From: Schmidtea nova
Taxonomy: Eukaryota
Direction of reading: 5' to 3'
NCBI GenBank assembly: GCA_044892505.1
Contig: CM097882.1
Location: 449,252,001 to 449,316,000 of the forward strand
Length of the DNA: 64,000 nucleotides
Shown piece after piece: positions 1,991 to 59,623 of this stretch. Made by a program: the position numbers and the translations under genes. The notes beneath the pieces were generated by a model. That model saw nothing but the letters and a program-made list of their open reading frames with translations. It did no database searches and was not told the origin of the DNA. Numbering within the stretch: position 1 is the stretch's first letter; the number at the start of each line of letters is the position of its first letter.

Positions 1991-2713
1991 AATTGAAAAA
2001 CAACTAAATTAATTGCAGAGAAATTCGGAAAGAAAAAAAGAAAACTCTGCTTGGCCGTCAAAATTCGATTTGGAAGATTCGATTATTTCTTCAGTTGCAA
2101 CCGTATAGTAGAAACATCTTCTTTTCGGATATTCTGAATTGTTCTTCTTTAAATCTTTAGAGGAATCTCATGAGATTTGACGATATACAAAACGATATAA
2201 TCGGGCAAAGTGCCCTTATGGTGATAAAACATAAGGTTCGTCTCTCGAAACATTTGAAAACTAAAAAAATAGTTGTAAACATGAAAATTGAACATTTAAA
2301 ATAATTTGATGCGATAAATGGTTAAATAGGTGCAACATTAGAAATATTAGAGTTGTACCCCAACATTTATGTGGGTGACCATTAAGATCATATTTATTTA
2401 CTCTCCCATTTAACTTGTTAGATTGAATATAATGTATTCTTTTCTTTTAGAGTTTGTATGATTTGTTTTATATTATGAAATTCTTCTCTTTCCATTGGTA
2501 TTTGCAACTTTGACAATAGTATATATTTTAATTTGCAAAGTGTTTCAGAAGTCTAATTAATCGATATAGTCTTTATTTTCTACCTCATGATGGCAGTGAG
2601 CTTGTTGAAATATATAGTAAAACGGTTGTTCAAGTTACAATGTTTATTTAATCATCTATTTAATAAATCAATCAATAAACAATATGTTTTTGAAGTGTTT
2701 AATTTCCATTTAG

Positions 2714-3585: not shown

Positions 3586-5263
3586 GTCTAGCTGCTCGAT
3601 TTTAAAAGTTGCAATAAAATTAATTCAAAAATAATTCAAAATATTTAATGAAAATAAATAAGAGTTGATTTCATTTATTTTAAAAAGAACATAAATTGAC
3701 AATAAATGGAAATAATGTCAAAAAATGTGAATGTGAGGGAAATTTGCCCTCTATTTCAAAATTTTACATTTACTAAAATCTAAAAAATCCAATAATGTTA
3801 CATTACGAAACGCACAAATCATCTCGTGTTCAAGTCTAATAATTTTAATTAAAGCAAAAAGGACAAGCGAAAGAATAATTACATAGATTAATAAGACGAA
3901 GTTTTATATTTATCTTTGACCGCTTCAGGAGATTTTTCATTTTGCTTGGTAAATGTTTAACAATTTTGTGAGGAGTCTTTTGGTGCATATCAAATTTCTG
4001 AAGTGTCGACCAGTTTTTGTTGGTGGTAAAATTGTTTGAGAAAAATATTAATAAATATTATAATAATTAAATTGTTAAAAATATTACAATTAGGATTTCT
4101 AAAATTCAAAGATTAGTAATAAACTCTAACCTTCACTTTTGGGCTTAATAAATAATGCCATAAATCTTACAAGGATTTTAATTATTTTTATTACATATGA
4201 AAGACCTACATTGTAGGCATATTAACAAAAAATAAAAAAAACAATTTTTTGATTTTCTGGTTGTTTTTTGTTTGTGAATGTAACAATAAAGAAACGACAT
4301 ATTGTTATTCGTGTAAACATTTTAGTAAGGAAATTTAAGCAAAAGAAATAAAATTAACTTTAATTTAATTTATTAATAATTATTAATTTATTTATAATTA
4401 TGTTGTTTGTCATTGAAATAAACGAATACAATTGTTCAATTATTAGTTTTTTATTTTTCTTGCAAAATTTTGCTTCAGGTTTTCAGTTCGAACATTGGAA
4501 AACAATTGTTTTGAATATAACAAAAAGAATTGAATATTTATTTTACTTTTTATAGTATATATTTTTAAATTTAATATAAAATAAGAACTAATTATTATAA
4601 TTCTTTCTTATATTGCCGTTAATTTATTTTGTTAGAATTTATTATATAATTGTTTATTTATACACATATGGTAATTATGTACTTAATGAAATTGTTATTT
4701 GAGTACAAATAAACAACACATTTAATTGGATGTGCCATTATATCATAAAACATCATACCTGCATCAATTATAAATAATAAAATAGTAAATAGTAAAATTT
4801 TTACACATTACAAGTTAAAAGAGTGTGAAAAAATATAAAATTCTTACTAATAAAATTTCATTTAAATTTTCATAAAATTGTTTTACAATTAAATTTACGA
4901 TGTTTATAAACAATCACACGAGTCTAAATAACGTTAAGTCCTTTATAAATCTTTAATGTCCATCAATTTACTGAATACATTCTTTAGTCTTTGGTTGAAC
5001 AGTATAATCATTATTAATTTTTCTTCTGTCAAACTGCGAATTTTATTGTTTTCCAATCAGGATGTACACAATATTCTTTTAATTAAATAATTTCTATTCT
5101 CATTTACGTCTTATATAAACTTCTCATCAATTAAAAATGTTGATACTTATTTGTTATTTCTCTTTTCATCTCTTTCCACTACTCTTTTTAATATATATTG
5201 AATTTCACATATGAAATTTAATTAATTGGCACTGCCTAAACAATATGAAACTAATAATTCTTT

Positions 5264-5628
5264 TATAATTATCTTTGATCTCTTTTTTTAATTCAATAAT
5301 TTTCATATTAATTTTTGTAAGACTAGATCAAATTTGTTGTTGTTGTTGTTACTAAGTCTACGATATTTTGGCACAGCCTTTATTTACGATAGATAAAGGC
5401 TGTGCCGAAATATCGTGTTCCTAACAACCAAAATAATTTGATCTTTAGTCATACAATTATTAATATGAAAATTATTTATTTAAAAAAAGAAATCAAAGGG
5501 GAAATCAAAAGATAATTATAAATAATTATAATAATTATAATACTATAATTATAATACAATAATTATAATATTATTATCAATAATTCTCATAATGATGACT
5601 ATAGATCAAAAGTTTTTTTATAAACAAT

Positions 5629-5684
<56 letters not shown>

Positions 5685-5876
5685 ATATTGTGTTATTGTT
5701 TATAAAAAAAAAATTTTGATCTATAGTCATTATGAGAATTATTGATAATAATAATAATAATAATTATAATAATTATAATTATAAATAATTATAATATAAT
5801 AATTATAAAAATTACAACAACAAGCAATTTGATCTAGTCTTACAAAAATTAATATGAAAATTATTGAAATAATAAC
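5264..5876. repeat. Compound foldback (palindromic MITE-like) repeat
   Basis: 5264-5520 is a near-perfect hairpin centred near 5385. 5571-5750 is a second palindrome around an (AT)n tract. 5815-5876 is the reverse complement of about 5293-5345. Confidence 0.85.
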
Positions 5877-7202: not shown

Positions 7203-7593
7203 CTGAATTTTTATAGGGCCCAAAATTTTGTATTATTATTATAAAAACTTATTTCATCTTTTAATTATTTGCAGATTATTATATTTACGTAATATAAGTA
7301 AAAAAATATTTAATTATATTACGTATCATAATTAATATAATACCTTTCTTAAGTAAAAATTTCACGAAAGCATAATATTTTTTTCAAATTTTTATTTAAA
7401 AAAACAATGTTGGCTTTGATTTTCTTTAACCGTTTACACAAAAAGCATTAAAATCAAATCATTGCTTCAGATTACTGATTGTGCTTTAAAGTCAGGCAAT
7501 ATAGGAATAATAAATTAACCATTTTGTTTTAAAAAAATTATAAAAGGGCCCCATAAGATTTTTAGCCTTGGGCCCCTTTAAGAGTGAATATAT

Positions 7594-7786
7594 ATTATCA
7601 ATAATTCTCATAATGCAGACTATAGATCAAACATTTTTTATATAAACAATAATACACACTTGATAAAGGCTGTGCTGAAATATTGTGTTGTTGTTTATAT
7701 AAATAATTTTTGATCTATAGTCTGCATTATGAGAATTATTGATAATAATAATAAAAAAAGATCAAATGTGAAAAAAGATAATTATG

Positions 7787-8889: not shown

Positions 8890-9280
8890 GATTTGTTTTG
8901 ACCTTTTTCTTTCCTGGAAATATAAATATTTTTAATACAACAAACATGGCAATGAAATAATAAAAAAAGAAACATCAATCCAAAATTATATTCCGCACAA
9001 TATATTTCGAGAAACTCCTTCTCATCATAAAGTGCTTTTCAGTCAAACATTACCATACAAATCAATCAAATCGATTTTAAACAAATTAATCATAATTTTT
9101 TAAAAACTTATTTAAAATTTTATAAAATAATCAAAACTTTTAAAAGCGATAAAATTATTTTAGAATTGAAATAAATTAATCTTAATTTTTAAATATAGTT
9201 TTCTTAAAAATATTTTCATATTTATAAACAATTGTATAATTGAAGAGTCTTCAATTATACAATTGTTTATAAATATGAAG
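8890..9280 (-). mobile_element. Penelope-like pseudo-LTR-type repeat with a degenerate hammerhead (8995-9035)
   Basis: Colinear similarity with 63620-63960. Minus strand reads GCAC tttatgat GAGAA ggagt TTCTC GAAA TATATT GTGC, i.e. a hammerhead layout with a mutated CUGAUGA core. Confidence 0.55.
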
Positions 9281-9369
9281 ACCAAACCTATTATCATCAA
9301 TTGACAATGCTTTAAAACTCGAATACAGAGAAGACGGTCAGTTTACTCCAAAGTGTGTGGCATTTTGGC

Positions 9370-9590
9370 CATAATTATCTTTTGATTTCACTTTTGATTT
9401 TTTTTTATTTAATTCAATAATTTTCATAGTAATATTTGTAAGACTATAGATTAAAAAGTTTTTTGGTTGTTAGAAACATTATATTTCGGTACAGCCTTTA
9501 TCAAGTGTGTATTTAAAAAATTGATCTATAGTCTCACAAATATTAATGAAAATTATTGAATCAAAAATTATAATTTATAGTATTTCTCAG
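9370..9590. repeat. Foldback family copy (diverged)
   Basis: Contains ataattatcttttgatttc, gactatagat and ttgatctatagtc arms and cagcctttatc. Confidence 0.75.
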
Positions 9591-9665
9591 TAAAATATAA
9601 AGGAATATTAGATTAATATTTGCAAAAAATGAAATCTTGGGAAAAGCAGTGTTAACATTTGTAAG

Positions 9666-10148
9666 CAGTGGCGTACCTAGGGTAAATGGCGCCTATGGCA
9701 AACACCGATCTTGTGCCCTCCCTGGCGATAGGTTACTTACGTTTTATTTTCTAAAAAACTACTTTAGAATTTGGTAAAAAAGCACACAAGTTAAATCTAT
9801 TAACACTTTATTACAAATTTATCTTTCTTGCTTTAGCTGACGCAAATTGTTTTTTTATATTATCAAAGTCAATTTATTCGGTCTTTTCTCGTTCTATGCT
9901 AAGTAAAGCAAGATTACATAATCGACTTTGGCCCGTCGAGACTCTCAAATATAAAAGTATCAATTTTAATTTGCTAAATGATCTTTCGCATCTGGCAATA
10001 GAAACAGCGATTTAATACACATATTGATATCTATAAAAATAATTTTTTATTTTCATTTGCGTATTTATATGTTAAGCGCTTTTTCGCGCCCCCTTCAGTT
10101 GGCGCCCATGGCACGTGCCATGCCTGCCATACCCTAGTTAAGCCTCTG
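9666..10148 (-). mobile_element. Internally deleted hAT (Tip100/ZMYM1-like) element
   Basis: Starts cagtggcgta and ends gcctctg. TSD tttgtaag / tttgcaag (7/8). Minus-strand remnant AVSIARCERSFSKLKLILLYLRVSTGQSRLCNLALLSIE is the hAT dimerisation domain. Confidence 0.85.
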
Positions 10149-10383
10149 TTTGCAAGTTTATAAAGATAAACGTATTTCGACAGCAAATAACTATAGTTGT
10201 GATTTTGTAAATACCGACACAAGTGAAGCCAATAAGCCAAGTCTTCCGCTTGTGTATTTTTTGTATAAATTTTACTTTTAGTCATTTGTCGTTTATACAT
10301 TCTTTAACATTTTTAATTTTGAAATAATCCCGAATGCTTAGCAAAACTAACTTATATTATAAATAATCAAAAAAACGTAGTAG

Positions 10384-10710
10384 GGACGGGTGGTGTGTAC
10401 AAAGGGCAGGGACGTAATCAGCGCAAGCTAGTGACTTGCGCTTACTAGGAATTCCTCGTTTAAGTGGAATAATTTCAATCCACTATTCCTGACACGACAG
10501 TGATTTAGCAGGTTACCCGGCCATTTCTAGCTAGGAATTAAACTCGCTGTTACTGTCATTGTAGCACGCGTGCGGACCCGGACATCTAAGGGCATCACAG
10601 ACCTGTTATGGATCAATTTCATTTAGCTAAACGCTATTTATTCCTCTAAGAAGTCAGCATTTGCGTCCGAACACAAATGTAATATTTAGCAGGTTAGAGT
10701 CTCGTTTGTT
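10384..10710 (-). pseudogene. 18S rRNA fragment (3' region, dispersed pseudogene)
   Basis: Reverse complements of conserved 18S blocks: GTGTGTACAAAGGGCAGGGACGTAATC, TTACTAGGAATTCCTCGTT, CATCTAAGGGCATCACAGACCTGTTAT, TAGCAGGTTAGAGTCTCGTT. Truncated at both ends, with substitutions in the normally invariant GACGGGCGG. Confidence 0.95.
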
Positions 10711-10753
10711 GTTTAGATATTGCATATTTTCTATTTATTATTGATTATCCTGA

Positions 10754-10800
10754 TTGCTGCCTGAAGAAGATTGTTATACAATCGAAATATATCGCGTTAA
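10754..10800 (+). ncRNA. Minimal type I hammerhead ribozyme (Penelope-associated type)
   Basis: UUGCUGC CUGAAGA A GAUUG-uuaua-CAAUC GAAA UAUAUC^GCGUUAA: intact core, 5-bp stem II, palindromic AUAUAU stem III, AUC cleavage triplet and an imperfect stem I. Confidence 0.75.
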
Positions 10801-11204
10801 TGTTGAATTTACTTAGTTGGCATTTTTCTATTATATTATAAAGTTTCAGTTTTCATACAAAAATCGTTGCTATATGAATTTTAATTTCATAATTAAAAAC
10901 AAATTTCAGTTTATTTTCTCTGTACAAATTAAAATATATTTTTTTATTTTAGTGCATTTCGCTTGATCATTTGGACATCTTATGCCCAATATATGTGCAA
11001 GAACCATTGAAACAGAATCAGGAATTATAGAATCAGTATCTTAGTCTTTTAAAATTTATAAACTAATACAAAATTTAAAGGCATTAAATTTGTCTTGACA
11101 GATAGCGTTGACGTTCAGTTGCAGTATTAATATTTTCAAAAATATGTACAATTTCTGAAGGATATGCATTAAAATAATTTTATTTAGTATATTCAATGCG
11201 ATGT

Positions 11205-11250
11205 CTAATGGCACATTCGTTTCGAGCTTATTTACCTCTCATCAGTACTA
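11205..11250 (-). ncRNA. Degenerate hammerhead-like motif
   Basis: Minus strand CUGAUGA GAG-guaaauaag-CUC GAAAC gaau GUG. The core is intact, but the triplet is GUG and stem I is poor. Confidence 0.35.
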
Positions 11251-11534
11251 AGTGAAAAATCCAATAAACTTCATTATAAATTGATAAACATTTTAAAATA
11301 TATCATTTTAATGAAATAAACAACGTTATTATATAAATTTGGAATTTAATATCATTATTATTATTATCATTATGTATAAAATCTCATAAATAAATAAATA
11401 GCGTTTTCCGAAATTTGTCAGTGCTAGAAGTAAACATGAATAATAAATCATTTATTTTCGAAATCAGCTTCAAAATATTATTACTAATAAATATGTTGGA
11501 ATTTTTGGCTAATTATTATATCCGATGTTAAAAT

Positions 11535-15129: not shown

Positions 15130-17733
15130 TTAATATTGCCTAATTGTACTTTATTAGGTTTTCTTTGTAATTTTTTAATGATTTACATGGGTTCGAAAAT
15201 ATTCATCATTATCTTTTTTATTCGTTTTTATTTTAATTATTTCAAATTTCTTCCATGTATTCAAGTCAATGCTTTTGTTTCATTTTGTATTATTTCGATA
15301 AACTTTGCATTTCTTTTAACTTTTAATATTTCCAATGCGTACTGCTACTTTTGTCATCCCTCTTCCAAATTTTGCTTTTATTTCCCATATATATTCGTTC
15401 TTCCTTTCTTCTTCATTTTTTATTCGTTTCAGTTTCATTCCGAAAACCTCTTATTTTTCCTGGACGATATTTTATGCTACAATAAATATAACTTGTTGCA
15501 TTGTATTTCTTATTTAAACTTCAATATTTATCTTCTTCATCTACTTCAATCTGCTATTATTTGCACATCTTAGTAATTCATCTCTTTCAATCATCTTTGT
15601 ATTTCCTTATCTATCCTTCAAAGCCTTTGACATAACATTTACTGGTGCTCCTGTATATAATAAACAATCATATCATATATCCGCAAATATTTATATTTAT
15701 GCTTGGTCTGCCTTGCATTTTGTTGAGGATACCTAAAATACAAAATAATATAAAAAAATAATAAAATTACCTTGGGGAAAATCGTCATGACGAATGAGAC
15801 GGCTAATGGGAACTCGAAAAAGAAAACGGAAAAAGGAAAGATAAATGAGAAAGAAGAATCAAACAAACGAAATTAAACAGAAAATCAAAACGAAGGTCAG
15901 CACTAATTAATTAGTGCAAAAGAGAAAGGAATTCGAAAATGGGAAAAAACAAAATAATTACAATAATCTTATCTCGACAGCTTGTCGAAGATAAGGGGAA
16001 GAGAAATAAAACAGCCAGGAGCGGCAAAAAGGAAAATCCGAAATTATCTAGACAGCTGTCATAGATAAACGGGAATTGGAAGAAAAAACGAGATGCCCGG
16101 GAATCAAAATGGAAAAAGGCAAAATTATCTCAAGTACCATAAAATTTGACGAGATATAAAAGGAAGAGACACAGAAGAAGCAGTCAGAATTTTTGAGAGC
16201 AGAATTGTAGAAAGAAATTGTTACAGAAGTTTAGCGAGCAGAATATTGTGAACCGAGGAGGTGAAACAGAAGTGTCAGAGAAGTTGTGAAACAGAATAAT
16301 TGAATTAGAAGTTGAGAGAGACAAAGTGGGAGAAGAATTAATTGAATTAGAAGTGAAAAGAATTATACAGAAACCCGAAGCAAAACTTAAAGGAAACTTA
16401 AAGAAAAGTTGAGAAGAGGCAGAGAAACAAAGAGATAAACAACAGGAGCTGATCCAGTTGATAATCGAGTGAAGTTCAGCGTAAATCCAAGTCAAACCAA
16501 GAAAACAACCAGTCAGATTGCCAATTGTTGTATCCATCAGTGGTGAGTGATTGTTCGAACCAAGACATTATACAAGTGCTATTCTTCAACATCGTGTCTT
16601 AATAAGCACTGTATAATGAGTTGTTGGTCTGTTGATTTTGGTCAATTCAATGTTTAAAAAAATATTTGTGATATTCAATAAAGTTTTCAGTGTTAATTGT
16701 TATTGTTGTCAATTAAAAGGCACGCTTTGGAGTCATATATTTTATTGGTAACTTTTACCATTTCACCAATACCCCAGAACCCAACAATTTTATCACATTT
16801 TATTTCTGTCTCTTTCCATTTTCCTTTAGTTATTCTACTCCCTTCATCCATATAAATACTTATCTCATTTATTCAAATGTCTTCATTTTTTAGAAATTAT
16901 ACACTTTTTTAACTTCTTGAATTTCCTTTTTCTTTAATAACGAGTTTTTATTCACATTCAAAACATTATTCGGTTTGGTAATATCATAATTCGGCCTTCT
17001 GCTTTTTCATATTCTTCAACCACTCTCTTCTTAAATAAAGTTATCACCAATTTATTTTGCTATTTCGTTTGTATTTTAATCGTCTTATAGAATCTTCAAC
17101 AATTCTGATGAATTTCATCAGTTTATCATCTCTTCTGAATCTATTTAGTAAAGATTTTATCATTAATAGATCGGTCGTCGAGGTCACCAAATTAGTGGTT
17201 ATCGTGATTAACTTCTCTTACTTTATATTAACTAAGAATACATCTTTTAAATATTTATTTAATGAAAACTTATGAAAATACAATAATGCTTCTTTTATTG
17301 TTATTTCTTAAACAAATAATTTTTTAGGCTCTTTTAAATAATTCAAATAGCAATTTCATATAAATTCATCTTCAAATTAAAAATTCTTAGTCTTTAAAAT
17401 TTTATATAAATAATTGATAAAAATAAAAAAATATCAAAGGTGAAACCAAAAGATAATTATGATCGTTATGATTTTATTGTTTTTAAAATATCATCCATGA
17501 GCTTTCCGATATATTTTTAAGGCCATTTTTTTATTTTATATAAAATTTGCTATTCAATTCATAGGCATATTTTGAAAGTTTAAAAATATTTTTTATTTTT
17601 TTTATAATTCTTAAATCAATTCTTGAATTTTGAACAATAAAATTTTAATAGTATTTTTGAAGTTACTATCTTTAAATATTTCTTCTAATTTAGAGAAATC
17701 ATAGAATTTCACGTTAAAATCATTAAGTAATAT
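15130..17733 (-). pseudogene. Highly degenerate LINE ORF2-like remnant, interrupted by a solo LTR and abutting a second
   Basis: The A-rich minus strand has ILLNDFN (GDFN-like) and SRIDL (SRID-like) AP-endonuclease motifs near 17600-17730. Many stops and frameshifts. Confidence 0.4.
15721..16786 (+). mobile_element. Solo LTR, family 1 (Ty3/gypsy-like)
   Basis: TGTTGAGG...CCCAACA ends, perfect 4-bp TSD attt/attt, TATAAAAG near 16156 and AATAAA near 16677. Confidence 0.9.
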
Positions 17734-23408: not shown

Positions 23409-26400
23409 CTATGACGTTCGACAACATGATAAAATAAATCTAGCTTTCCTACTCATATTGGAACCGGCACGAATGAACGGGTTAGTGTTAGTGAATCCAG
23501 TCACCGATTTCCCGGTGGTATTATTGCTATTGTTGTTATTCGAGTAGTCGATGTGATCTGCCGAGTGCCGATGACCGCTAATTTTGCCGCCGTTTTTAGA
23601 ATCGACACCAACAGCTCTCGATTTCATATTCGCTGCTGCCAACAACGATTCCTCTCTGTTCTTCTTGCCCACCAAAAGCGATTCGGAATCGTCTGGAGAA
23701 TGCAGCGATTTATTCCCGATCGGCAAACTCGTCACCGATGCGTACTCGCACCGGCTTTCCCTGCCACTCACGGTCGCTGAGGCACTCACGACACCGCCGT
23801 CAGACCGATAGCGATCATTACCCGAGTAATAGTTCGATCTCGTCGAGTCGGTTTTGATTTTATTCGCCATGCATTGCAGCTCAAATGCTCCCCGGACGAG
23901 ATTCATCATGGCTTTCGAGTCTCGCAGGCTGCTAGCGAATGAGCTGAGACTGAAATTTGATTGGGTTAATTGACTGGATAAACTGTGGCTGTTTAATTTG
24001 TGTGCCGATTGCAGCGGGACGGTGATCGGGGCGTTGGCTTGTCGCTTGGTACTGCTGCTGGTGGCGACAAAGCTGCGGTTGATTATCCCACCGCCGGTAA
24101 TTGGCATCCATTTTGATGGCGTACCGTCGGCGGATTCTGATTTGCGCCGGCAGTCAACCGAAACGCTTCGATACGAACCCCTTCCTGTTCCTCCTACGAA
24201 TCCTCCTCCTCCTCCGCCGCAGACGACGTTATCGAGACTTGTTTCTTTATCAATATAACTGCGGGATCGAATCAGCTCTTCCTCTTCGTGGATTGGTGCG
24301 CAAATGTCGCGATGCATTGTCATGCTGGCAACGGTTGGACTGCTTGCTAAGGGACCGTTGCTAACCTGTGAGGAGCTGGCGTTGTCATTCCCATAGTCAT
24401 TGTCGTTATTGTGGGTGTTATTGCCTCCAATCGGGATCTGCTCCTCGGATATTATCTGGGACGACACCCCGCCGCACATTATCGATTGGAAATCATCAAA
24501 AGGAGTGCCCATCGTTGCTCCCATTGAACTCGGTCTACTCCTACCGGATTTGATTCTCAAGCGACGATTGGTAGAACAGAAAAGCTTAGGCCCACTGCCC
24601 AATGTTCCAGCGGTCCCGGTACTGGTTGCAAACGAGCCGTCACTGTCGATGGAACTGTTGGACATCATTAATTCCGGCGTGTGAGGCTTTAGGTTGACAA
24701 ATTTCGAATAGAAATGTTTATTGCTGCTGTTGTTGTTATTATTGCTGAATGATTTGGGAACCGCGACGAATTTCCGTTCACTGAAACCGCGCAAAATCGA
24801 CAGCTCGTTGTCGGACAGATCGCTACTCGAATGGCTATGAGAGAGAGTGCTGTTGCCGCAGCTGACGGCGGCAGTGGATAGATTGAACAATGCCGGATAG
24901 CTGCAGCGTTTCTTTGACGTGTGGCCGGTGGCTTGAATCGCTGGAACGTGCGCGCTCGGCAATGAGACCCGATGTTTCGTTAGATAATAGAAATTGTCAT
25001 CCGATGAAATGGAGTTCGTTCGTCGATTGAACTGCGCTGAGAAATTGCGCTGGAATCTGGGAATGATTGAGAGCTTGTTGGATGAGGATTTCTGTGGCGA
25101 TATTGCATGGCTGGGAGCCGGTCGGCAATTGCTGTTGTTCTCTTCGTGGATGTTGTTGAGCAGTTGACTGAAGCTGGGGATCGATGACAACGAATGGCTG
25201 GAGTAGATCAATGAACGCCGGTTGTAAATTGCTGACCGGCAGCGATTTCTAGTGGTGAATTGTTGGCGGAAGGTAGAAAATCGAGAGTTGTTATTCAATT
25301 CAGATTCCGGAGTTTCTTGGTCGATTGAATCACTCAAACGCGAACAACAGCGACTGGGAAATGGCGCTGAGATGCCCGATTGTGATGAGACTTCGAATTT
25401 CGGAACTGTCAATTCGAGTTCTTCTCTCACTGACGCCAACGAAATCATAGCGTCGAGCTCTTCTTCTTCGGCTTCATCTTCTTCATCTTCGAGGATCATA
25501 CTAAACCGACGAATTCGATCTTCATTCGTTTCGGTAATCGGAGAAATGTTTGTCTGCTTTTGAAGAGCACTCGGAGACAAATTGACCAGAGCTTCCTCGT
25601 CAATTTCCTGACTCGACTGCAACAAAATCGTTTCTTTTTCCATTTCGAGTAATTTCATTTTGCAATAATTCTCGAAATATCTTCGCTTCAATTTCCGTTC
25701 AGCCAATAGGAAATACGTTGCACTGATGTATGAATATTCATTCCGATCGAGTATCGATTGGATTTCCTCAACAGAAGCCAAGTTTCCTTCACTCATTTTC
25801 GTGAGAATTTCCACGTGTTCTTCGACAGTTAAATGCTCCTGACTGATGAGTGGAACAGAAAACGAATCCAAAACATAATTGCTTTCGTTTTCATATTCCA
25901 ACCATTTATCCAATAGGATTTCTTCTAAGCAAGACCGGTTTTCCGGTTCTCTGACTAGCATTTTTTTGATGAGATTTTTACACGAATCCGATAAATGCAA
26001 TGGTAATTCATATTTACAATCCATGATTTTAGAAAGCGTTTCACTATCGTTAGCTTCCTCAAACGGTAAATGACCACAAACGAGCATATATAAAATCACT
26101 CCAAGTGACCAAATGTCGACTTTTGGAGCATCGTATGCGTCACCGAGCAAAATTTCCGGTGCCGAATACGCCAAAGAACCACAAGAGGTATCGAGAGTTT
26201 TACCGGGCACAAATTTATTACTAAATCCAAAATCTGTTAGTTTTACCAGTTCGACTTTTTCAAAGAAAACCACATTTTCCGGTTTTAAATCCCGATGTAC
26301 GACATGGAGATTGTGACAATAGGCAATTGCTTGTACAATTTGTCGGAAATATCGTTTGGCTTTTATTTCTGGAAGTCCGTTTTCAAATTTCATAATATAA

Positions 26401-26732
26401 TCATAGAGATCTCCCCCATCACCGAGCTCCAATATTAAATATAATTTTGTCGATGTATCTATGACTTCATACAATCTCACAACATTTGGATGCTGGACTA
26501 ATTTCATACACATCACTTCGGAAAATAAATGCTCTCGGGATTGGATGTCTAATTTTGTTTTGTCTATAACTTTTATTGCCACTTTTTCACCGGTAAATGC
26601 ATGTTTTGCTTCTTTGACTACAGCATAATGACCTTTACCTATTGTACTACCAATATTATAAAGTCCAGCTATTTTATCATTATCGGAATTCATAATCGAT
26701 TTTTTGATGCATGAAAAACTATTTAGGTCCAT
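23409..26732 (-). CDS. SNRK: SNF-related serine/threonine kinase (AMPK-related family) with UBA domain and a long Ser-rich tail; coding sequence intronless
   Basis: [100 protein letters not shown] are SNRK-diagnostic. The activation-loop Thr (LKB1 site) is present, followed by the UBA-like [13 protein letters not shown]...[16 protein letters not shown]. Confidence 0.97.
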
Positions 26733-31399: not shown

Positions 31400-31863
31400 A
31401 AATAACTGTTTCATCAATTTAAAACATTAATTCAAAATATTTGTCATTTATAAATAAATTTTCCAAATCCTACTTGTATTCCATCAGAAGATACATTATT
31501 GTTCGCCGGAAAATTGTCAGAAAGACTATAGTTTGCAAAAAGATTAAAAAATATTGAAATTGCACCACTTTTTGAAAATCAAAGTATTCAGACATCATTG
31601 TCACTACAAGAAGAATTGGATATTTTGCTGCAAAAGGAAAAACGATGAATTCAAATGACTAAAACAAGAATTTATATTATTTAGAAATACTAGCAAAAGA
31701 ACTGAAAATTTGTTCGAGGCATTTCTTACAATTAAACCGACATCTATAGACGTTGACCGCGTATTTTCGATATCAACAAAATTTTGTACTAAGATTCGTT
31801 CACGCCTACCTGATGAATATCTTAATTCCTCGGTGTTCCTGAAATTTCATTATAATAAATAAT
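31400..31863 (+). pseudogene. hAT transposase C-terminal remnant
   Basis: LTIKPTSIDVDRVFSISTKFCTKIRSRLPDEYLNSSVFLKFH (hAT dimerisation domain), the same family as the copies at 47.5 kb and 54.6 kb. Confidence 0.8.
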
Positions 31864-41535: not shown

Positions 41536-42522
41536 CTTATTTTTTGTACTGCTTCGTATACATATACATATACATAAGAAAAACATAAATATGAAAAATG
41601 CTAGTATAAAAATATCACACGAGTAGCATTTCCAAACTGTTAGTGGATTTCTAATTTGTGACTATATTACATCTTTTATTTTGTTTACCTTTCTTTTTTT
41701 ATTTTTTGAATAATGAAATTTTTTGATCTAGACTTTTCAAAAATATATAAGCTAAATAGTGAGTGTAATAATTATACACTATAAAAAAGCAATTGAATAA
41801 AACCCGATCATTTTTGTTTGAATTTGTTTAGTACTTGACGATGACAGCTGATATGTTGAAATATATTTTAAGAAATGGTGTTATTTATTTCAAAAAATTG
41901 CAATTAATACAATTTAATAGTTTCTTTTATTTTAAACTTACAAAAATAAAATTAGATGTAAAATTTAATGCATATAAGTTATTGACAGTTCTTTAACATT
42001 GCATTTCGATAAATAAAATTTAAAAAAAATTCTAACGAAATTTACTACTTTAATGCACATAAAACGAATGTTTTAAGTTTCTCGCGGTTTATTGGAGTCT
42101 TAACAATTGTTAAAATTCAGTATAATGATATTATAAGTTTTCCGTTGAAGTTTAAAGTTCTAATAAAATAAAATAATAAATTACCAGTTGATATTAGGAA
42201 TCAAATTCGGTGCAAAATGAAACAGTTTCCATAATCAAAAGATTATTTTATTTTTGCTTTGACAGATTATTTTTATATCCAAGTTGAAAAAAAGTAACCA
42301 GTCATTTTGGTTTGTTAAAGATACTAATATTATTCTTGTAAATCTATATTAATTATTTATAATGTTATTGTCGAGCCTTGTATTTTATATATTGTATAAT
42401 AATTTACCCTACAGTTAACTGATGTCATTTCGTTTACAAGTTTTACACGAACTGATAAGCGAAAATAATATCAATATTTAATTTTAATTACACTTTTAAA
42501 TACATTGATGAACTTAAATGAC

Positions 42523-43604: not shown

Positions 43605-44604
43605 TGTTAGGGATACCTAAATAACAAATTTAGGAATAAATAAATAAAATTACCTGGAGGAAAATCGTCATGACGAATGAGACGGTTAACGGGAACTCGG
43701 AAAAGAAAACAAAAATAAAAAAAATGAGAAATGAGAAAGAGGAATCAGACAAAAAAAGAAAAACAAGTCAGCACTATATAATTAGTACAAAAGAAAAAGG
43801 AATTTCAAAATCGGGAAAAACAGAAACAACAACAATATACTTATCTCGACAGCTTGTCAGAGATAACTGAAACAAAAAGAAAACAGACCAGAGCGGCAAA
43901 AAGGAAAAACAGAGAATATCTTGACAGCTGTCAAAGATAACTCCGTTTTAGAAAAGTCGAGAAATTATGCTGGAGGAAAAATTGAAAATTAGAGATACAC
44001 TGAAGTGTCACAAAGTGACGAGATATAAAAGGAGGGAACTCAGCAGAGAGTGACAGAACATTGGCGGGAGAAAAATTACGAGAGAAAATTAGACAGAACA
44101 TTTATGACAGACGGTTGAAGACAATACGACGGAAATTTATTGGAGAAATTGAAAGATTTTGTGAAGCCGGAGAAAGTTAGAAGAGAAGTTTAGAAAATAA
44201 TTCAAAGGAAATCCGACGAAATAATAATCAGAAATAAAGGAAGTGACAGAAATTTTAGTGAGATCCGTTATTATCAATTAGTAACCATGTAAAGCTCAGC
44301 AAATAAATCCAAGTAAAACCCATAAAACAACAAGTTAAATTACCAGTTGTTACCCTCTTCAGTAGTGAGTAATATTTTGAATCAGGATTATACGCGAGTG
44401 CTATTCCTCACAATAGTGTTACAATAAGCACTGTATAATCATCAGTTAGACTGTTGAGTCAATTGTATCATTGTGAAAATATTTGTGATATTCAATAAAG
44501 TTTACTGCTGTCAATTGTTATTTGTGGGTCAATTAAAAGTACGCTTGGAGTCAGATGAATAATTTGTTAAATTTGAGTTTCACCAACGACCCAATAACCC
44601 AACT
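43605..44604 (+). mobile_element. Solo LTR, family 1
   Basis: TGTTAGGGATACCTAA...CCCAACT ends, TSD aagg/aagg, colinear with 15721-16786. Confidence 0.9.
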
Positions 44605-48732: not shown

Positions 48733-51700
48733 CAGAGGTTCCCAAACTTTTTTTGTCTCGTGGACCACTTGTCCTGGTTTTCGGTTTTTAGGTAGACTCC
48801 CTGCTTACCTGAGATTAATTTGTGCAAATTTATCAACTTCAAATGTATTTTTGACTACTGGCATAATGCTACTCATTTTGAAAGATTTAAATTTCTAACT
48901 GTAGGGAAGTGTATATGAAAAACCTAAAAGAACACAGTAAGTTTTATACATTTATTAATTAAATTCAAATTAAAACAAATTAAATTAAAATTTAGTATCT
49001 ATTATATAAAATAACTAAGCAAAAAATAAATACTTTAGTGTGAGGGATGAACCTGATAATAAATAAATAATAATAAATTTTCAACATTTGACATCAATTT
49101 AGTTAGGTGTAATCTCAAATTGCCTCGGTTAATGATATACAATTTGTTTCTTTTTGTTGTTAGGAGATTGGCAACTGCGCTGAAAATCCTTTCCACTAGG
49201 TATGAGGATGGATAAGAAATTAAAAGCTTTCTCGCGATATTCCATAATACAGGATAAGTAACAGGTATGTCTTTTGAAGCCAGAATTGCTGATATCCGTT
49301 TCTAAACTGTACCTTAAGTGGTATGTTAGTGTTTATTGCGATTAGTTCCTCTTGTAATATAACATCCGTTTCTTCAATGCAACCATATGGATTGATTATT
49401 CACTGTGGTATAACCATAGTTAAAATATCCTCAAACCTAGTTTCAAAATCTTAACCGAGGACATATAAATGTTGAACGTAGGCTGAAACGTCATCTTCCT
49501 GACAATTTGTCTGTAACAAATTGGGGAACTGGGAAAATTTGCGCCGTCCAATATTTTGCTTCATTAGCTTAATTCTGGCAAGAAACGCTGAAATGATTGA
49601 CTTTGTTTTAATCAAATTTAGACTTTTACCTTGTAACTATTAACCATATTAAATTTAGTAAACAAATCTGTTAAATAGGCAATGTCTATTTTGCACTTCA
49701 ATAAATTTTCTTTTAAAATTTGATTTTTAGTATCCTGAAATTCTAAAATAGTCTCAAAAAGTGCAAAAGATCTTATCAAACATAAGCCTTTCGACAGCCA
49801 ACGTACTTCAGTGTGACGGAGTAATTGATGAAACAGCACAAACAACCGTGTATACAATGCGCTTCTTTGGATTTGTTTTATTACATTAATGACTAATTGA
49901 AGAGATTCAAACAATCTAACAATCAAAATTTTTTTGATGACGTAATTTATTTCTAACACCCGGGTAAATTTTATTTAAAATATCTTATAAATTCAGGGCA
50001 GGGTATAGACTGATATTTTATTTGATAAAAGGATTGCTTTTTCATGAAGTAATCCTTGAAAACATGAAATATTGATTCGCTTTTAGTGTCTGTTATCAAA
50101 GCTCTCGCGAAGAGGAGTTCCTCGTAGATTTCTTGATCCATAATAAAACTAACATGCCAATATTAATGCTTCATTACCAGGTAAAGTTGACTCGTCCAGC
50201 AGTATAGAAAAATGGGTTGTTTGCAAATAATTTCACAAGAAGCTTTCAATATCATAACTTATTTCATGAATATGTCTTTCAACTGTTTTGTTGCTTAAAG
50301 AAATTCTTTTAATAATATCAGATGCAGGTTTTTGTAAAACAGTTTTTAAAACATCTTCAACGGCTGGAAAAATTAACTTTTCTCCGATATTATGCAGTTT
50401 CTGGATTTTGCTATAAGTAGCGAGATATTGTAAGACCGCCGCAAACCATCATCGTTTCTTTGTGACGTTGAAGCAAACATTTTTTCTGGCGTGGGTATTT
50501 TTTTGAAGTTTATTTCAAATCTTAATTTTTTATCAGGATGACATCTTCTTAGAAGCTTAGATCATTTCATAGCGTCATTACTTAAAACTTTGTTGCATAA
50601 AAGGCACATATGCAATTGTTTGTCCGACAATGATGGAATGAAGCCAAACTTCAAATAATCAACACTGTACTACTTACATTTATTAGATTTGGACATGTTT
50701 AGTATCAGTTATCTGGTGATAAAATTAATCTATTTAAATAAGACAGCAATAATATAATAATAAATTTTATAAAAAACAATGTATTTAATTTTCTCCGGCA
50801 CTCTTAAACAAAATGATACTGATTCACTTTACTTTCCTTTTCAAGATTCAGGAAACAAATGGACGTATTTGTCTCTCACATTCGTAATTATCGACTGGCG
50901 AATTGAACCAGTCAGTGCAAGTACGAGTCTTCCTGCACTGTCTTTGCGATGTTCTGAGACAAGAATGGACAAGAATTTATACTTCAAGTATGTGTGTTAC
51001 ATGATGGTACTGGTATGTCATTATGTCCAAGTTTTTACAAGTTAAAATTTTATTGCGACGACAAAGCGAATACTTACAACTTACAAAACAGTAGTAGTGT
51101 ACTGTCGGTCTGCTTGTGACGTTTTCACGTAAAAACTAAGCAACAAATCTCGTGATATTGTGCGCATATTAAGTTGGAGGTGTAACTAGCTAGAGTTGAT
51201 ACAAGCTATATGCTACAATTTACTTTGGAAAAATACTTTTACAAAATAGAAACTTAAATTCAGAGAAAATAAAACGTACGTGGGTGGAGCTGCGGACAAC
51301 TGCTAGTTAACAATAATTCTTTAACAGTCTCATTTGTCAGAAAATATATCTAATAACTTAAATTTTATTATATTTCTCCATCACGTTTCATGAACATTTA
51401 ATGTTTTAAGAAATTTTACTTCATAGGTACTTTTATAATTTATGTAGATAGTTATATCTAATATATCTAAATATATCTAATAACTTAAATTTTATTATAT
51501 TTCTCCATCACGTTTCATGAACATTTAATGTTTTAAGAAATTTTACTTCATAGGTACTTTTATAATTTATGTAGATAGTTATATATCTTTATACTATAAG
51601 GCAGTATTATATATCTTTATACTATAAGGCAGTATTACATAAGTAAAGAGGTGTTATGCGTGTATGCGGATTATTCCATTAACGAATGCCAAAATTAATG

Positions 51701-52096: not shown

Positions 52097-53116
52097 TTAA
52101 ATAAGGGTTTCGCCAATTTTATGTGGTTTTTTCTGACGTGCAATTAATTTTGCAACGTGGTAACTAGCTTCTAACGCTTTGTCAGAAATTGTAACGGACG
52201 ATCTCAGAAATTGCCTCTGTTTTAAATTTTGATTTAAAAGCCGCTGAAAATATTGTTTGTCCTTGTTGGCGCAATTGGGATGTTTTGATTTTAGATGGCG
52301 AATCAGTTTACTTGGCACCATTGCCTCGTTGGAAAGCTGTTCTCTGCAAATTACGCATTCTGGTTTCGGAGCCGCTTCTTCACCACACCATGAAAATCCG
52401 TATTGAATATATTCTGCATTGTATTGCCTTTTCACTATCTTCGGTCTTTTTACATCATTGCTCGTGCTGGGTTCATCATCATTTGTCGATAAAGTTGAAC
52501 ATTCTTTACGCAAAAACTTGTCCATATTTAAAATTATATAAAGTAAATATGAATAAAATAATTTTATTATTACACGCCCAGGTACAAATATTATTAGTAA
52601 TCGTAAAATATTTTAAATGTTATTTTAATTGTAATATTTATATATTAAAAATTATTCAAATTCAATATTTAGAATTGAGCGCTAGTCAAGTTATTTAGAA
52701 AAATAATTATTTGAATACTTACATTAATTTTTATCTTCTAAATTCACAAAATCACAGAGAGATGAGTACACTATAAAAGCTAACTTACGAATGAAAATTT
52801 AAAATCATCATCTGATTCAATAAAATAATGGATCAGTTGTCCGAAGTCAACGAAAACAAATTTCTCTAAAATTTCTTGTATTTATTGTTCAGGCTGTAAA
52901 ACTTGGTAGCACAACATAAGACAATAAATTTAAATGTGAACAACCTGAAATGTAATTTTTTAACCCATGTTTATTGACCGAATATTTTGTCAACAACGCA
53001 ATTATTTGTAAACAAGATAGATATAAGCATAACGCACGTGTCCGTCATAAACCCTATATTTTTTTCTCGGATAGGCATTGCGCCGCGGCACACCTAGCAT
53101 CACCTCGCGGCACTGA
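52097..53116 (-). mobile_element. 5' fragment of a Buster-type hAT with a BED-finger transposase N-terminus
   Basis: ORF 52525-52097 RQYNAEYIQYGF...PECVICREQLSNEAMVPSKLIRHLKSKH...EASYHVAKLIARQKKPHKIGETLI, with gtgccgcg subterminal repeats. Confidence 0.88.
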
Positions 53117-53119
53117 TTT

Positions 53120-54408
53120 AAAACTCATATAAATAGACAAGAATGTAATTTATTATTATACAAGAATCATTTTGTATTGTGTAAAAATATTAAAGTGTTT
53201 TTAGGAAATTCTAGTTCATTGAATAGAGAACCTTGTCTTAATTGTTTAACATCTTTCACATCAATTAATCAATTAAAAGAACACCAAAAAGTGTGTATTG
53301 AAAATAAAGAAGCTATAGCTATATTTCCACATCAAGAATACAAATGTTTTAAAGAATATGAATATAAAACTAAATGTCCATTTGTCATGTATGGAGATTT
53401 TGAATCATATAGTTTAGAAAAATATGGAAAATCAATTCAAACTCCTTATTGTGTTGGAATACAAAGTTTCTCAATATCAAGAACTTTTTCCCAACAAATA
53501 CATTCCGTGTTATAGTAGTAATGCTATGGAAGATTTTATAAATGAAATAATTGATTTGGAAGCCAAGTTTTCAAAATTATTAAAAACAAATGAAAAGGTG
53601 ATTCTAATAGGAAAAAATGGATTAAAATTTGAACAAGCAACAAATTGTTATTATTGTAATAAATTATTATTAAGTGATAAAGTATTAGATCATGATCATT
53701 ATAATGGAGATTATAGAGGAGCTGCTCATAATGAATGTAATTTTAGAGCTAAACAAAATACATTTTTTCCATTTTTCTTTCATAATGGTAGTAGATATGA
53801 CAATCACTTGTTTTTTTAGATTTGATAAAACATAATAGTTTGAAAATTTATTATTTGAAAATTTATTATAATAAAACAAATTATTTCCAAAAATGATCAA
53901 GTATATATTAGTTTTGAATTTGGTTGTATAAGATTTCTTGATTCATATAGAATTATGTCTGAATCTTTAGATTCTTTATCAAGTAAATTATTACCAAAAC
54001 AAGTAAAAATAAGTAAGGAACTTAGAAAGGGAATTTATCCATATGATTATCTAAGTGGAAATAGTTTTAAAGAAATATGGAAAATATTAGATGTAAAACA
54101 ATTACTACCAATTGAAAAATTCTTTTCAAAGTTAAAAATAAGTTTATAGAACCTGAAGAATATGAATTAGCACAAAAGAATTGGAAAGAATTAAAGTGTA
54201 GAAACTTTAAAGATTATACAATAAAATATTTAAAGATTGACGTCCAATTTTTGGGAGATAATTTTGAAAATTTCAGATAAGTATGTTTAGAAAATTTTCA
54301 AATATATCCATGTTATTGTTATTCAGCACCAGGATTAACTTGGATAGCAGGATTAAAATATACTCAAGTAAAATTAAAACATTATAACATGAAACTTTTG
54401 ATATGGAA
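53120..54408 (+). pseudogene. Maverick/Polinton protein-primed DNA polymerase B, N-terminal half
   Basis: CLNCLTSF..LKEHQKVC, PFVMYGDFES, CYYC...DHDHYNGDYRGAAHNECN...FFHNGSRYDNH, LRKGIYPYDYL, YSAPGLTW. Frameshifted and truncated by a hAT insertion. Confidence 0.9.
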
Positions 54409-54876
54409 TAGTATATGCACGAATACCGTTAATTCTTAATACCGGTATTCAGTATTGATTTTCGTTAATACCGGTATTATCGGTATAAACCGGTATTCAA
54501 TAAAAAATAGAAATCAAATATGCATTTTTATTGTAATAAATATAATACTAGCATTAACCATACTTAACAATTATTTCTTTAGATTCAAAAAATATGACCT
54601 TAAAAAGGATAACGTGTCCAAAGTGGAATCATTGAGCCTTGATCTTATTGTGGTACAGAATAATCCAGCTGCAGAGAACGCTCTCTCGAATTCTACACTA
54701 GTTGGTGGGATTGTCAATAATGCCTGATAAACAGATTCTAAATATTTTCCTCTATGATTTTGTTTCCGTAATATTTCCAGCTCTGTCTTAATTATGCCTT
54801 TGATGTCTTTTATTGTATCTGCAGATTGTTTATCATTAAACGGCAAAGTTAGTTTTTCTTGAATCAATAAATGCAA
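54409..54876 (-). mobile_element. 3' end of a hAT element inserted in pPolB
   Basis: Terminus tagtatatgcacgaatacc, ataccggtat repeats, and LLTIPPTSVEFERAFSAAG..TTIRSRL. Confidence 0.85.
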
Positions 54877-55008
54877 TAAAGTTTGTGTTATTGAAAGTGT
54901 TATTGGGGGTCAATTAAAGGCACGCTTTGGAGTCAGATATTTGATTGGTAACTTTTACCATTTTACCAACACCCCGGAACTCAACATATTTGGTGAGCCC
55001 GACGTGAT
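54874..55008 (+). mobile_element. 3' end of a family 1 LTR plus tRNA-Trp primer-binding site (PBS)
   Basis: caattaaaggcacgctttggagtc...aactcaaCA, then tatt, then TGGTGAGCCCGACGTGAT (54991-55008), 17/18 identical to the canonical tRNA-Trp PBS TGGTGACCCCGACGTGAT. Confidence 0.85.
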
Positions 55009-55424
55009 CAGAGGTTGATGAAAATATTATTGAGTAAAAACAGTTGTACAATAACCCCACGTGATCAGAGGTTGGTGAAAATATTATTGAGTAAAAACAG
55101 TTGTACCATAACCCGACGTGATCTAACGTTGGTGAAAAGATTATTGAATAAAAGTAATTGTAATATTTCAGACGTGATAAAAGTTGGTGGCGAATTATTG
55201 AATAAAAAGTATTGAAAAAGAAGTGAAAATAATTGTGATAAAGAGAAATTATTCAACGAAATGAGTGGATAAAATTAAATCATGCAATGGAAGATAAATT
55301 GATATACAAAGAAGTTAAAAGAATTAATGTATCTAATAAATAAATTATTATTAATGTATTATTATTAATGTATGTAATAAATAAATTATTATTAATGTAT
55401 TATTATTAATGTATCTAATAAATA

Positions 55425-56582
55425 AATTAATAATTGTTGCCATTTTTCCATTTGATAAATCTATACTAATTTCTTTTTCAGTTAAATTCACAGCAAAACA
55501 TCTTGCTTTAAAAATAGAATCTTTATTAATATGAATTGTAATATTAACTCCATTCATTGCTAGTTTTTCATCTTTAGCACTAGTATCAAAACAAAATTTT
55601 GATTACAAATTTTTAAAATCTGTCAAATTTAATTGTGGATCTACTCCAAATTCATGACACATTTCTACATAATTCTGATATGGTTTAGCTTGATGATTAT
55701 TTTTAAAAGAAAGTGTTGTAGGATCAATAGGATAATAAGTTGTATTTAATTGAACTCGTATGCTTTTAATTTCATTAACATTAACTTTTTGAATAAATTT
55801 TGAATAATTTTCTGTAAATGAAGGAGTCAAATCTTTAAAACCAACAATAATAAATCTAGGTCTTGAATTTAAAACTGTTGGTTTCCATGAATATTGTGTT
55901 CCTTCAGGAATATCAATACTTGAAGAAATTCTTTCCAAATAATTTACAATAATAGGTTTTGAAAAATTCATTCTATCCAAAATGTCAACTTCTAATTTTA
56001 GATTACATGTTATTGAAGGAACTATTAATTTTAATTCTTCAAAAACTAGTTTTGGTTCAGCTCTAGCATTTACCCCATAAAAATATTTTGATTATTTTGA
56101 TTTCTACTCATTCTTAATTCAAATGGAATTCGATATATTAATCTTTTATAATTTTGAAAGAATCCAAACAAAGTTTTTAGAGGATATATTCCTTCAAAAC
56201 TTGTAGAATACAATTCCTTTCTAACTTTAAATCCATGATTTTTAGTATCACCAGCTCCAGTATCAGGAATCCAAGTATTTAAATATTGTTTTTTATAATC
56301 TTCATCAGTCATGACAAAATTTATCAATTCACTTGCTTCACCAGAATTTTCAATACTTTCTACTTCTGTTGAACCTAGTTTTATTGATATTTGAGAAAAT
56401 ACATTACAAAACCAATTGTGTTCCAAAGTTATATACTTTGTAATACATGTATGAATTACAAATATCAATAGGATTTGATGTTTGTTGAATTTGAAATAAA
56501 AGATAGTGAAACTTCTAATAAATCTCGTTTTTAAATTGATGGTTAAATGAGAAACTTTTGTCAAAATTAAAACTTGTGTCAT
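55425..56582 (-). pseudogene. Maverick/Polinton major capsid protein (double jelly-roll, PY)
   Basis: FSQISIKLGSTEVESIENSGEA, YPLKTLFGFFQNYKRLIY, RPRFIIVGF, IRVQLNTTYYP, FCFDTSAKDEKL resemble Polinton MCP motifs. Several frameshifts. Confidence 0.78.
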
Positions 56583-56589
56583 TCATTTT

Positions 56590-58128
56590 TAAAAGTATTT
56601 CTTTAAAATTTTGCTATATTTTTCTGTTGTTATTAATTTTAATTCAACAAGTCTTGATAGAATTGCATTGACATGATTAAAAGTATTTGAATGACCAGCT
56701 TTTGTTGCAGATAATAGTTTATTTAATTGATAAAATAATTCCATAGGATATTCAGGAAAAAAGACAATCGGCGAAGCCGTTACTTTGTGAATTGGTTGCT
56801 CATTAACTCCTTTACCTTTACGAGAAGTACCTTCACCTGTTTCTGGTTTTGCATATGGCTACTCAATTGTGATCCACGAAATGACAGCTCCGCTGATAGG
56901 TTTTCAGATTTTTTAGATTTTACAAGTTGTTTTTCTGATGTCTTTAAAAATTCTTCTTCTGATTCTTCAACCAATTCTTTTTTTAAAGGAGTTGTGGAGC
57001 TGACACTGTGTCTGTTGAGCAATAGAACTAGAAGTTCTTCGATCGGCTCCTAAAGCCAATTTTATATTTACAATAATTTATAGTATTAAAATGTGGAACA
57101 TCTTCTGTTAATGATATAAAATCTTTTACAGTTTCTTTTTTACTACAAGATTTGATTGAGCTTTAGCCCTTGCATTTCCTTCAAAACATGATTGAAGATC
57201 TTTATCTCATAAATTTTAAATTATTTTCAATTCTATGAATATAAAAAATGGGATCATCTTTAATTTTTAAAAACTTATAAATTTGATTTCCTAATTTTAA
57301 AAAATATCCACGTTTTTCTTTTCCTTCATTAGTAAATAATTTAGAAGTATTGTTAAGATCAAAAAGATGGGGGCTGCTGACCTTAACACAGCTGACTCCA
57401 ATTGTAAATAAAACTATATTTATAAATAATAATATGTAATATTATAATTTATGTTTCGACGGTTGCTAGTTCCTATAAATAAATGAACTCAAGACAATTA
57501 CTTTTTCTAATGTTTAATGAAAATAAAATTTACAAAATCTGTTGTTATGTTTTGTGAGTTACAAAAGATAACTTACAAGGAATGGATTCACTGATCCCTG
57601 CTGTTTTTACCAGCCTGCAAGAAATAGTTGGCACCTTAGTAGCACAACTATCGCAATTAAAGAAAGAGGGCAAGCAAGAATTAATTTGGAGGCTACCCGA
57701 GTAGTGGTGAAACGGAAATGGTTTCCCTCTACTGCTTAAATTTAAAACTATTATTTATTTAATTAAAACGGTTAATACTGTAAAAGTAATTAACCGTCGC
57801 TTTACGATTCCCTTTTTCTTTCCAATAAAACAAAATTATAACTACCCGTCGATTCTCGAATAATCGTTAATTCCTCGTCCGCTGGATAATTTATCTCTAG
57901 ATTGGTTTCTCTGCAAATATCCCTCTAAATGATAACCTCCGAGAACGTCCTCCTCAGTTTTCCACTTTCGATTGTCTGCTAATTTTGTCTCCGACTTTTC
58001 TCAAGTTCTCACGCACACTAATATCGTCCGTTACTCAATGTTCCTGTGGTTATCGTCACAAATAAAACTTTTCGTCAGTTCTGTTATCGTCCTCTCCCGT
58101 TTTCTTTTCAATTTTCTTTCGTTTCCTG

Positions 58129-58191
<63 letters not shown>

Positions 58192-59030: not shown

Positions 59031-59032
59031 AC

Positions 59033-59619
59033 TTAATTGAAAAAATACAAAAAAATAGAATTTCCTCGTATACTTCTACGTGTTAAATCATAATAATTTT
59101 GAGATAAATATATACAATTACACTTGTTATGTCTTCCAAGCGTAAAGTATGATTTCATTATTTCTTGGTTTTTATCATTTACACAATCATCAAAAACTAT
59201 TAGATTCTTTTTATTTACATTTAATGTGTCACAAGCAGGAATTTCAAAATATTTATTAGACATGGTAACATTAATTATTGGTTTTGGATTTCCTTTTATT
59301 TCTGCAAGAGATTCACAAATTATTTTAATAGTTACATAATCGAATGTATTGATTTAAAAAAATATAAATGACATCTTGTTTTGTTAATCCACTATTAAAA
59401 CCATGAAATATTATTTGCATTTCTGGTTTTTGAAAATATAATTAAATTGTCATAATCTAAATAATCTGGTGTTAGTAATAGTTTATTTAACAAGACTGTT
59501 TTGCCACTTCCAGATAAACCAACTATCAATATTCTAAAACATTCTAGAATTATTGGATTGTGATTAAATTGGACAACATCTCTATTCCAAACAGGCATAA
59601 AATCAAAGTCATTTTCCAT
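59033..59619 (-). pseudogene. Maverick/Polinton packaging ATPase (A32/FtsK-like)
   Basis: Walker A RILIVGLSGSGKT, Walker B LIVFDDC, and FTLGRHNKCNCIYLSQNYY. One frameshift. Confidence 0.9.
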
Positions 59620-59623
59620 TTTA

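Follow-up and report, generated by a model that had tools for sequence, protein, structure and literature searches.

Why does one 64,000-nt stretch of the Schmidtea nova genome (hereafter the window) carry a complete hammerhead ribozyme motif, and by what route did it arrive there? The window is AT-rich, with a GC content of 20-47% per 2-kb bin, mostly below 32%, and the motif, our candidate, lies in its first fifth:

10753-10801, plus strand: type I minimal hammerhead, family C, with an intact core, an extra A at position 9.1 and an AUAUAU helix III

In hammerhead numbering, every core position of the candidate is intact (C3, U4, G5, A6, N7, G8 and A9; G12, A13 and A14; the A15.1-U16.1 pair; H17). 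Stem I consists of an inner part, UGC with GCG (10758-10760 with 10794-10796; U-G, G-C and C-G pairs), and an outer part in which a C/U mismatch is followed by 4 bp (10753-10756 with 10798-10801). The segment from C3 to A9 reads CUGAAGA (10761-10767) and is followed by an unpaired extra A (10768) between positions 9 and 10.1. Stem II has 5 bp, GAUUG/CAAUC (10769-10773 with 10779-10783), retains G10.1-C11.1 and is closed by the loop UUAUA. The 3' box GAAA (10784-10787) runs into the palindromic AUAUAU (10787-10792), and C17 is 10793, after which cleavage is predicted. An earlier note had described the complete core, the 5-bp stem II, the palindrome and the cut at C10793, all of which are confirmed by reading and by a descriptor; it had passed over the extra A10768, the adjoining 18S fragment and the U3-A8 fold-back family described below. 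Folding gives probabilities of 0.99 for the G10.1-C11.1 pair and 0.69 for the 2.1-1.1 pair, so that helix II is nearly always and helix I mostly formed. The stems are weak nonetheless (-4.9 kcal/mol), and AUAUAU as a self-duplex is worth just -0.8 kcal/mol. Homodimer folding gave no helix III in trans, an unfair test because the double hammerhead is pseudoknotted.

The candidate is a real, non-random motif. A descriptor search of the kind that the earlier note had proposed for the whole genome was run on the window under six settings and found exactly two complete motifs with every setting, at 10761 on the plus strand and at 63720 on the minus strand; the Rfam hammerhead models, proposed alongside, matched nothing in the window, even at E 5. 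The chance expectation came from resampling the window block by block 600 times with an order-2 Markov model and reading both strands. A palindromic helix III combined with a stem II of at least 5 bp appeared in 0/600 resampled windows, and with a stem II of at least 3 bp in 3/600. The loosest descriptor gave at least one match in 37/600 and at least two in 4/600, against two in the real window. In public collections, the family C pattern had no match in viral contigs and two in metagenomes, one sequence found twice and lacking stem I. A general hammerhead pattern had 28 viral matches, none with both a 5-bp stem II and a 3-bp stem I, and the five prokaryotic matches to hammerhead patterns all lacked stem I. 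Among sequencing runs, four from one study of a single organism contain 0.32-0.58 of the words of 8900-11300 and may come from the source, compared with 0.05-0.13 for 16 others. Viral contig L030 (3501-3530) has both hammerhead boxes with stems of 4 + 4 bp rich in G-U; it is unrelated to the window and may be chance.

Is the candidate alone? No second family C copy was found in the window, and the candidate is the only motif in it with all core positions intact in the long, AUAUAU register. Other hammerhead motifs are nevertheless scattered along the sequence. Two belong to a family A, and three further decayed motifs were scored by a model built from three sequences (the candidate and both family A motifs) and searched across the window except 10371-10699:

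8933-9279, minus strand: family A copy 1, with its hammerhead at 8995-9035, C3 and G5 lost
63618-63889, minus strand: family A copy 2, with its hammerhead at 63684-63724
2580-2620, plus strand: decayed hammerhead of the same geometry, G5 lost, stem II rich in G-U (28.2 bits, E 1.5e-6)
41831-41871, plus strand: decayed hammerhead-like motif of the same geometry (19.3 bits, E 0.004)
11211-11248, minus strand: weak and decayed hammerhead-like motif, 450 nt from the candidate and facing it (14.9 bits, E 0.09)

The loss of G5 is lethal to a hammerhead. The motif at 63684-63724 is broken in the long register by a U16.1 to G change, and in a shorter register it is a complete minimal hammerhead (AUAU, A17, stem I GCAC/GUGU). 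The two family A copies are 74% identical over 283 columns and align in both flanks (p 0.003). Copy 1 has at its 5' end a perfect 65-nt palindrome (9215-9279), like the palindromes at inverted junctions of Penelope-like elements (PLEs). Next to the 3' end of copy 2 lies an exact 74-bp direct repeat, with copies 140 bp apart, in 63401-63614. The motif at 11211-11248, which the earlier note had already called the weaker case, lacks the extra base, has either a G at position 17 or a broken helix III, and sits in flanks unrelated to family A or C. The same model also scores two motifs of a further family, B, at 9474-9508 (15.7 bits) and 7656-7688 (15.3 bits); its next match, at 13.6 bits, falls in sequence of 16% GC.

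How are these motifs related? The earlier note counted three of them as degenerate relatives of the candidate. The motifs exist, all on the minus strand, but homology to the candidate is not supported: relationship of its flanks to those of family A, family B or the motif at 11245 was rejected, the best p being 0.02 among nine comparisons. The covariation-like support claimed for stem II fares similarly. The candidate and the two family A motifs align gap-free over 41 columns, and in this three-sequence alignment 28/30 cells pair, with four pairs changed on both sides, so the pairing is real; all four two-sided changes, however, fall between the candidate and family A. Since these families have unrelated flanks, the pairing reflects a design shared across families. 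The proposal of at least two hammerhead-bearing families in the window is borne out, there being in fact three or more.

The shared design is that of PLEs. Cervera and de la Pena 2014 (PMC4209133) list PLE features that go beyond the descriptor: a base between positions 9 and 10.1, G10.1-C11.1, a palindromic 15.2-16.2, and families with compensatory changes. The first three apply to the candidate, compensatory changes appear here only across families, with a single family C copy in the window, and the earlier assignment to the minimal type I hammerheads of the PLE kind agrees with this published design. By eye, the D. virilis Penelope pseudo-LTR (PMC4209133 Fig. 2C, S3) shares with the candidate CUGAAGA, the extra base, G10.1-C11.1, an AUAUAU helix III followed by C17 (GAAA-UAUAU-C) and a very short inner stem I. 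The candidate differs from it in a 5-bp stem II without a bulge, in having no ORF or intron after it and in being a single copy. A Schmidtea mediterranea PLE (PMC4209133 Fig. S3, AAWT01060303) agrees with the candidate, again by eye, in its box, its extra base, a 5-bp stem II with a 5-nt loop and the UAUA that follows GAAA, whereas the sequences of stem II, loop and stem I differ; that motif is tied to a partial PLE and the candidate to none. Its stem II and that of family A differ, by eye, in one compensatory pair (GAGGA/UCCUC versus GAGAA/UUCUC). Directly upstream of the candidate is a further element of the published motif:

10713-10752, plus strand: U-rich leader of about 40 nt, presumed 5'-truncated rest of the pseudo-LTR

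Such a U-rich 5' flank belongs to the PLE motif consensus of PMC4209133. The same paper reports most such motifs as single and probably truncated PLEs, with some opposite-strand pairs 100-700 bp apart, an arrangement repeated here by the motifs at 10761 (plus) and 11245 (minus).

Structural marks of the PLE type come from family B, which comprises two fragments and four fold-back units:

7587-7786, plus strand: family B fold-back unit whose 64-bp arms flank a U3-A8 hammerhead at 7656-7688 (C11.1 to U)
9370-9567, minus strand: family B fold-back unit, U3-A8 core at 9474-9508 with damaged stems, and a 38-nt tail on one arm only
5254-5519, no strand assigned: family B head-to-head pair, both arms beginning within the catalytic box, hairpin at 5359-5417
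5566-5759, no strand assigned: family B fold-back unit with a (TA)n run in place of the core, at the AUAU palindrome

All share a sequence of 75-113 nt that starts at the hammerhead, which has the box UUGAUAA plus A, a 3-bp stem II, a 3-nt loop and U, C or A at N17 depending on the copy; no copy is individually intact. The box plus A is identical to that of the U3-A8 hammerheads of Schistosoma mansoni (family Sm3, PMC4209133), from which family B differs in its stem II of only 3 bp, 3-nt loop and short fold-back units. The (TA)n run at 5566-5759 would have one of two origins: the unit was inserted into a microsatellite, or the palindrome itself expanded. Rfam miRNA matches at 5346-5435 coincide with a family B hairpin, are far below gathering scores and were rejected. 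Neither the family A nor the family B pattern had a match in public collections, and no convincing target-site duplication was found for either family.

Among the ten family B arms, four end at 112-113, four at 75-78 and two unclearly, giving two discrete 3' ends 35-38 nt apart. The longer end is clearly one-sided in two of the four units, including the 35-nt tail on the right arm of the 7587-7786 unit, and unclear in the other two. PLEs are typified by inverted copies placed head-to-head and by a 30-40-bp tail at just one end (PMC8557442, PMC3846280), and the tail has been traced to two reverse transcriptase (RT) start sites of PAc, the Poseidon PLE of Anolis (Frangieh et al. 2024, PMC11167929). 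Family B, with its four inverted units alongside the palindrome of family A copy 1, matches these hallmarks, and this is evidence from family B and not from the candidate. PAc is alike in further respects: it ends tens of bases downstream of its hammerhead, has two ends 30-40 nt apart and uses AT-rich targets. It is, however, a full element with tested protein-assisted cleavage, while cleavage of the window motifs is predicted.

Do any of the window's frames encode a PLE protein? No remnant of a PLE RT or GIY-YIG endonuclease was found in the 290 of 376 frames scanned (stop-to-stop, at least 45 residues, ranked by composition after setting aside the kinase region and the rRNA fragment), nor by a search with characteristic motifs. 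A full PLE spanning the 3.1 kb between the motifs at 7660 and 10761, both on the plus strand, was rejected, as the two are not of one family and the frames scanned in the interval showed no RT. The link between the candidate and PLEs thus rests on design and neighbourhood rather than on sequence continuity. Such an absence is expected of solo truncated copies, and we therefore class the candidate as a relic and not as an element.

Other occupants of the window are of different kinds. hAT transposase remnants (zf-BED, DUF4371, dimerisation domain) lie at 52100-52612, 62433-63089, 49038-49301, 54574-54909 and 31659-31859. hAT elements make an 8-bp target duplication, and a short hAT-type element at 9666-10148, with terminal inverted repeats matching at 15/18 positions, has an 8-bp duplication with one mismatch and a hAT dimerisation remnant at 9877-10011. 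A decayed Polinton/Maverick-like element at 53117-59625 retains pieces of an endonuclease VII-like protein, a type B polymerase, a double-jelly-roll capsid and an A32-type ATPase in short broken frames, interrupted by a hAT remnant. An intron-less ORF of 1107 codons at 23409-26732 on the minus strand encodes an SNF-related kinase; the best named matches to its residues 1-420, from 8000 candidates scored, are from tapeworms and flukes (62-69% identity), ahead of arthropods, which places the host among the flatworms, with no close relative in the collection searched. Lastly, a repeat of about 900 bp occurs twice (15736-16635 and 43619-44457), 74-80% alike and without a Pfam match in the frames scanned.

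Taken with the design match, these results make it likely that the candidate is a PLE pseudo-LTR hammerhead in a solo, heavily 5'-truncated insertion, and that the genome is littered with such relics of at least three PLE families. The earlier note had offered retrozymes as an option, under which the candidate would be a monomer of a non-LTR retrozyme making circular RNA by tandem self-cleavage. The candidate is indeed a type I hammerhead in AT-rich non-coding DNA of low GC, as in the metazoan non-LTR retrozymes (Cervera and de la Pena 2020); solo monomers exist, and an origin of retrozymes from PLE pseudo-LTRs has been argued (10.64898/2026.07.22.740005). Retrozymes are, however, described as canonical motifs with loop 1-loop 2 contacts in repeats of 150-450 bp (PMC7229834), while the candidate has no canonical helix I with tertiary contacts, only a short and broken one, and it carries the additional base that characterises PLE motifs. 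None of the 42 tandem-array rows for the window contains a hammerhead. The lack of hammerhead-bearing arrays, together with the lack of RT and endonuclease remnants in the frames scanned, argues for truncated pseudo-LTR relics and makes a retrozyme very unlikely. The earlier description of the families as non-autonomous loses its force, because 5'-truncated copies of ordinary PLEs explain the data equally well. Endonuclease-less PLEs of the Athena and Terminon type likewise carry minimal hammerheads (PMC4209133), but the site is interstitial, with no telomeric-type repeat array nearby, and both the inverted copies and the tails seen in the window are of the kind made by endonuclease-bearing PLEs (PMC3846280); we give an endonuclease-less source a very small share of the probability.

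Could the motif instead serve the host, trimming a local transcript such as one with antisense 18S? Its standing as the sole fully intact copy in the long register and the antisense rRNA piece directly upstream would fit a domesticated ribozyme. The weak stems, the unstable helix III and, in the frames scanned, the lack of any known gene for 12 kb along that strand speak against it, and an intact 13-base core is expected of a young insertion; domestication is accordingly highly improbable. As for a chance match in AT-rich DNA, the failure of Rfam and of the search for a second family C copy might be read in its favour, and huge collections do yield chance matches with a 5-bp stem II, as the two metagenome matches illustrate. 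The resampled windows and the gap-free match over 41 columns to two other motifs and to the published flatworm design leave this explanation the least credible of all.

How, then, would a PLE relic have come to lie here, and does it act? A PLE RT would have been primed at a nick in AT-rich DNA. Synthesis would then have started a few tens of bases downstream of the hammerhead and ended once about 40 nt of upstream sequence had been copied. On the evidence of the literature, the parent element's ribozyme would cut after C17 only in one of two situations: where another copy in a tandem transcript supplies the rest of helix III, or where the element's own protein helps the ribozyme to fold. Dimers of such motifs cleaved at a low level and monomers did not (PMC4209133). 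For PAc, the element's protein was required for cleavage, insertion did not depend on cleavage, and RNA-seq reads showed no ends at the site (PMC11167929). The lone candidate, which lacks a family partner in the window and has so weak a helix III, is probably inert, doing little or nothing. A fairly young age would suffice to explain its intact core, and selection need not be invoked.

What lies next to the candidate raises a further possibility:

10375-10712 (ends approximate), minus strand: part of the interior of a eukaryotic 18S rRNA gene, matched by Rfam RF01960 (72.7 bits, E 2e-17) together with two weaker pieces
10352-10363, plus strand: left copy of a 12-bp direct repeat, a possible target-site duplication
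10831-10842, plus strand: right counterpart of that repeat, 37 nt past the predicted cut

The 18S fragment ends 40 nt upstream of the hammerhead in head-to-head orientation, and the 12-bp repeat encloses both, with 467 bp inside. Among AT-rich control pairs, such a repeat occurred in 5/1509 with a 60-nt right box and in 43/1507 with a 500-nt box, that is 0.3-3%, the box having been chosen post hoc. The inverted 18S piece occupies the usual place of the inverted 5'-truncated copy of a PLE and may have entered with the hammerhead in one event, a reading to which we give somewhat less than even weight. The lizard protein PAc cuts and extends both strands (PMC11167929) and rotifer PLEs capture host sequence between their pseudo-LTRs (PMC3846280), which together make one insertion primed on two RNAs plausible. 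In its most specific form, a rather unlikely one in our judgement, the 467-bp stretch would be a single insertion for which a dimeric PLE protein nicked both strands and simultaneously copied its own pseudo-LTR on one and host 18S rRNA on the other. Two independent insertion events in AT-rich DNA are the alternative.

What do these relics mean for PLE biology? The class, extra base, palindrome and scattered solo copies are already described in the 2014 study by Cervera and de la Pena (PMC4209133). As a hammerhead, the candidate is one further sequence in a class with thousands of copies per genome, flatworms included. Family B touches on the open question of cleavage in vivo. In the 7587-7786 unit, the inverted arm ends about 3 nt or less from the cut site, although AC repeats make the placement ambiguous; the junctions of the other three units differ, and the fit to the cut site therefore stands at one unit in four. 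Family B fold-back junctions may mark the ribozyme cut site, and if they do, they would provide a genome-wide fossil test of PLE hammerhead cleavage in vivo, a compact U3-A8 family with junctions near the cut site being a cheap place to ask. For the 18S fragment, no PLE-18S chimera appears in the open literature searched, nor in the available part of one review. If the single-insertion reading is true, PLE machinery writes rRNA into DNA, and a chimera that was then amplified would become an 18S-bearing, hammerhead-bearing element. Co-insertion, if confirmed, would show directly from genomic sequence that PLEs can prime on two strands with two templates, and would extend their known capture of host sequence.
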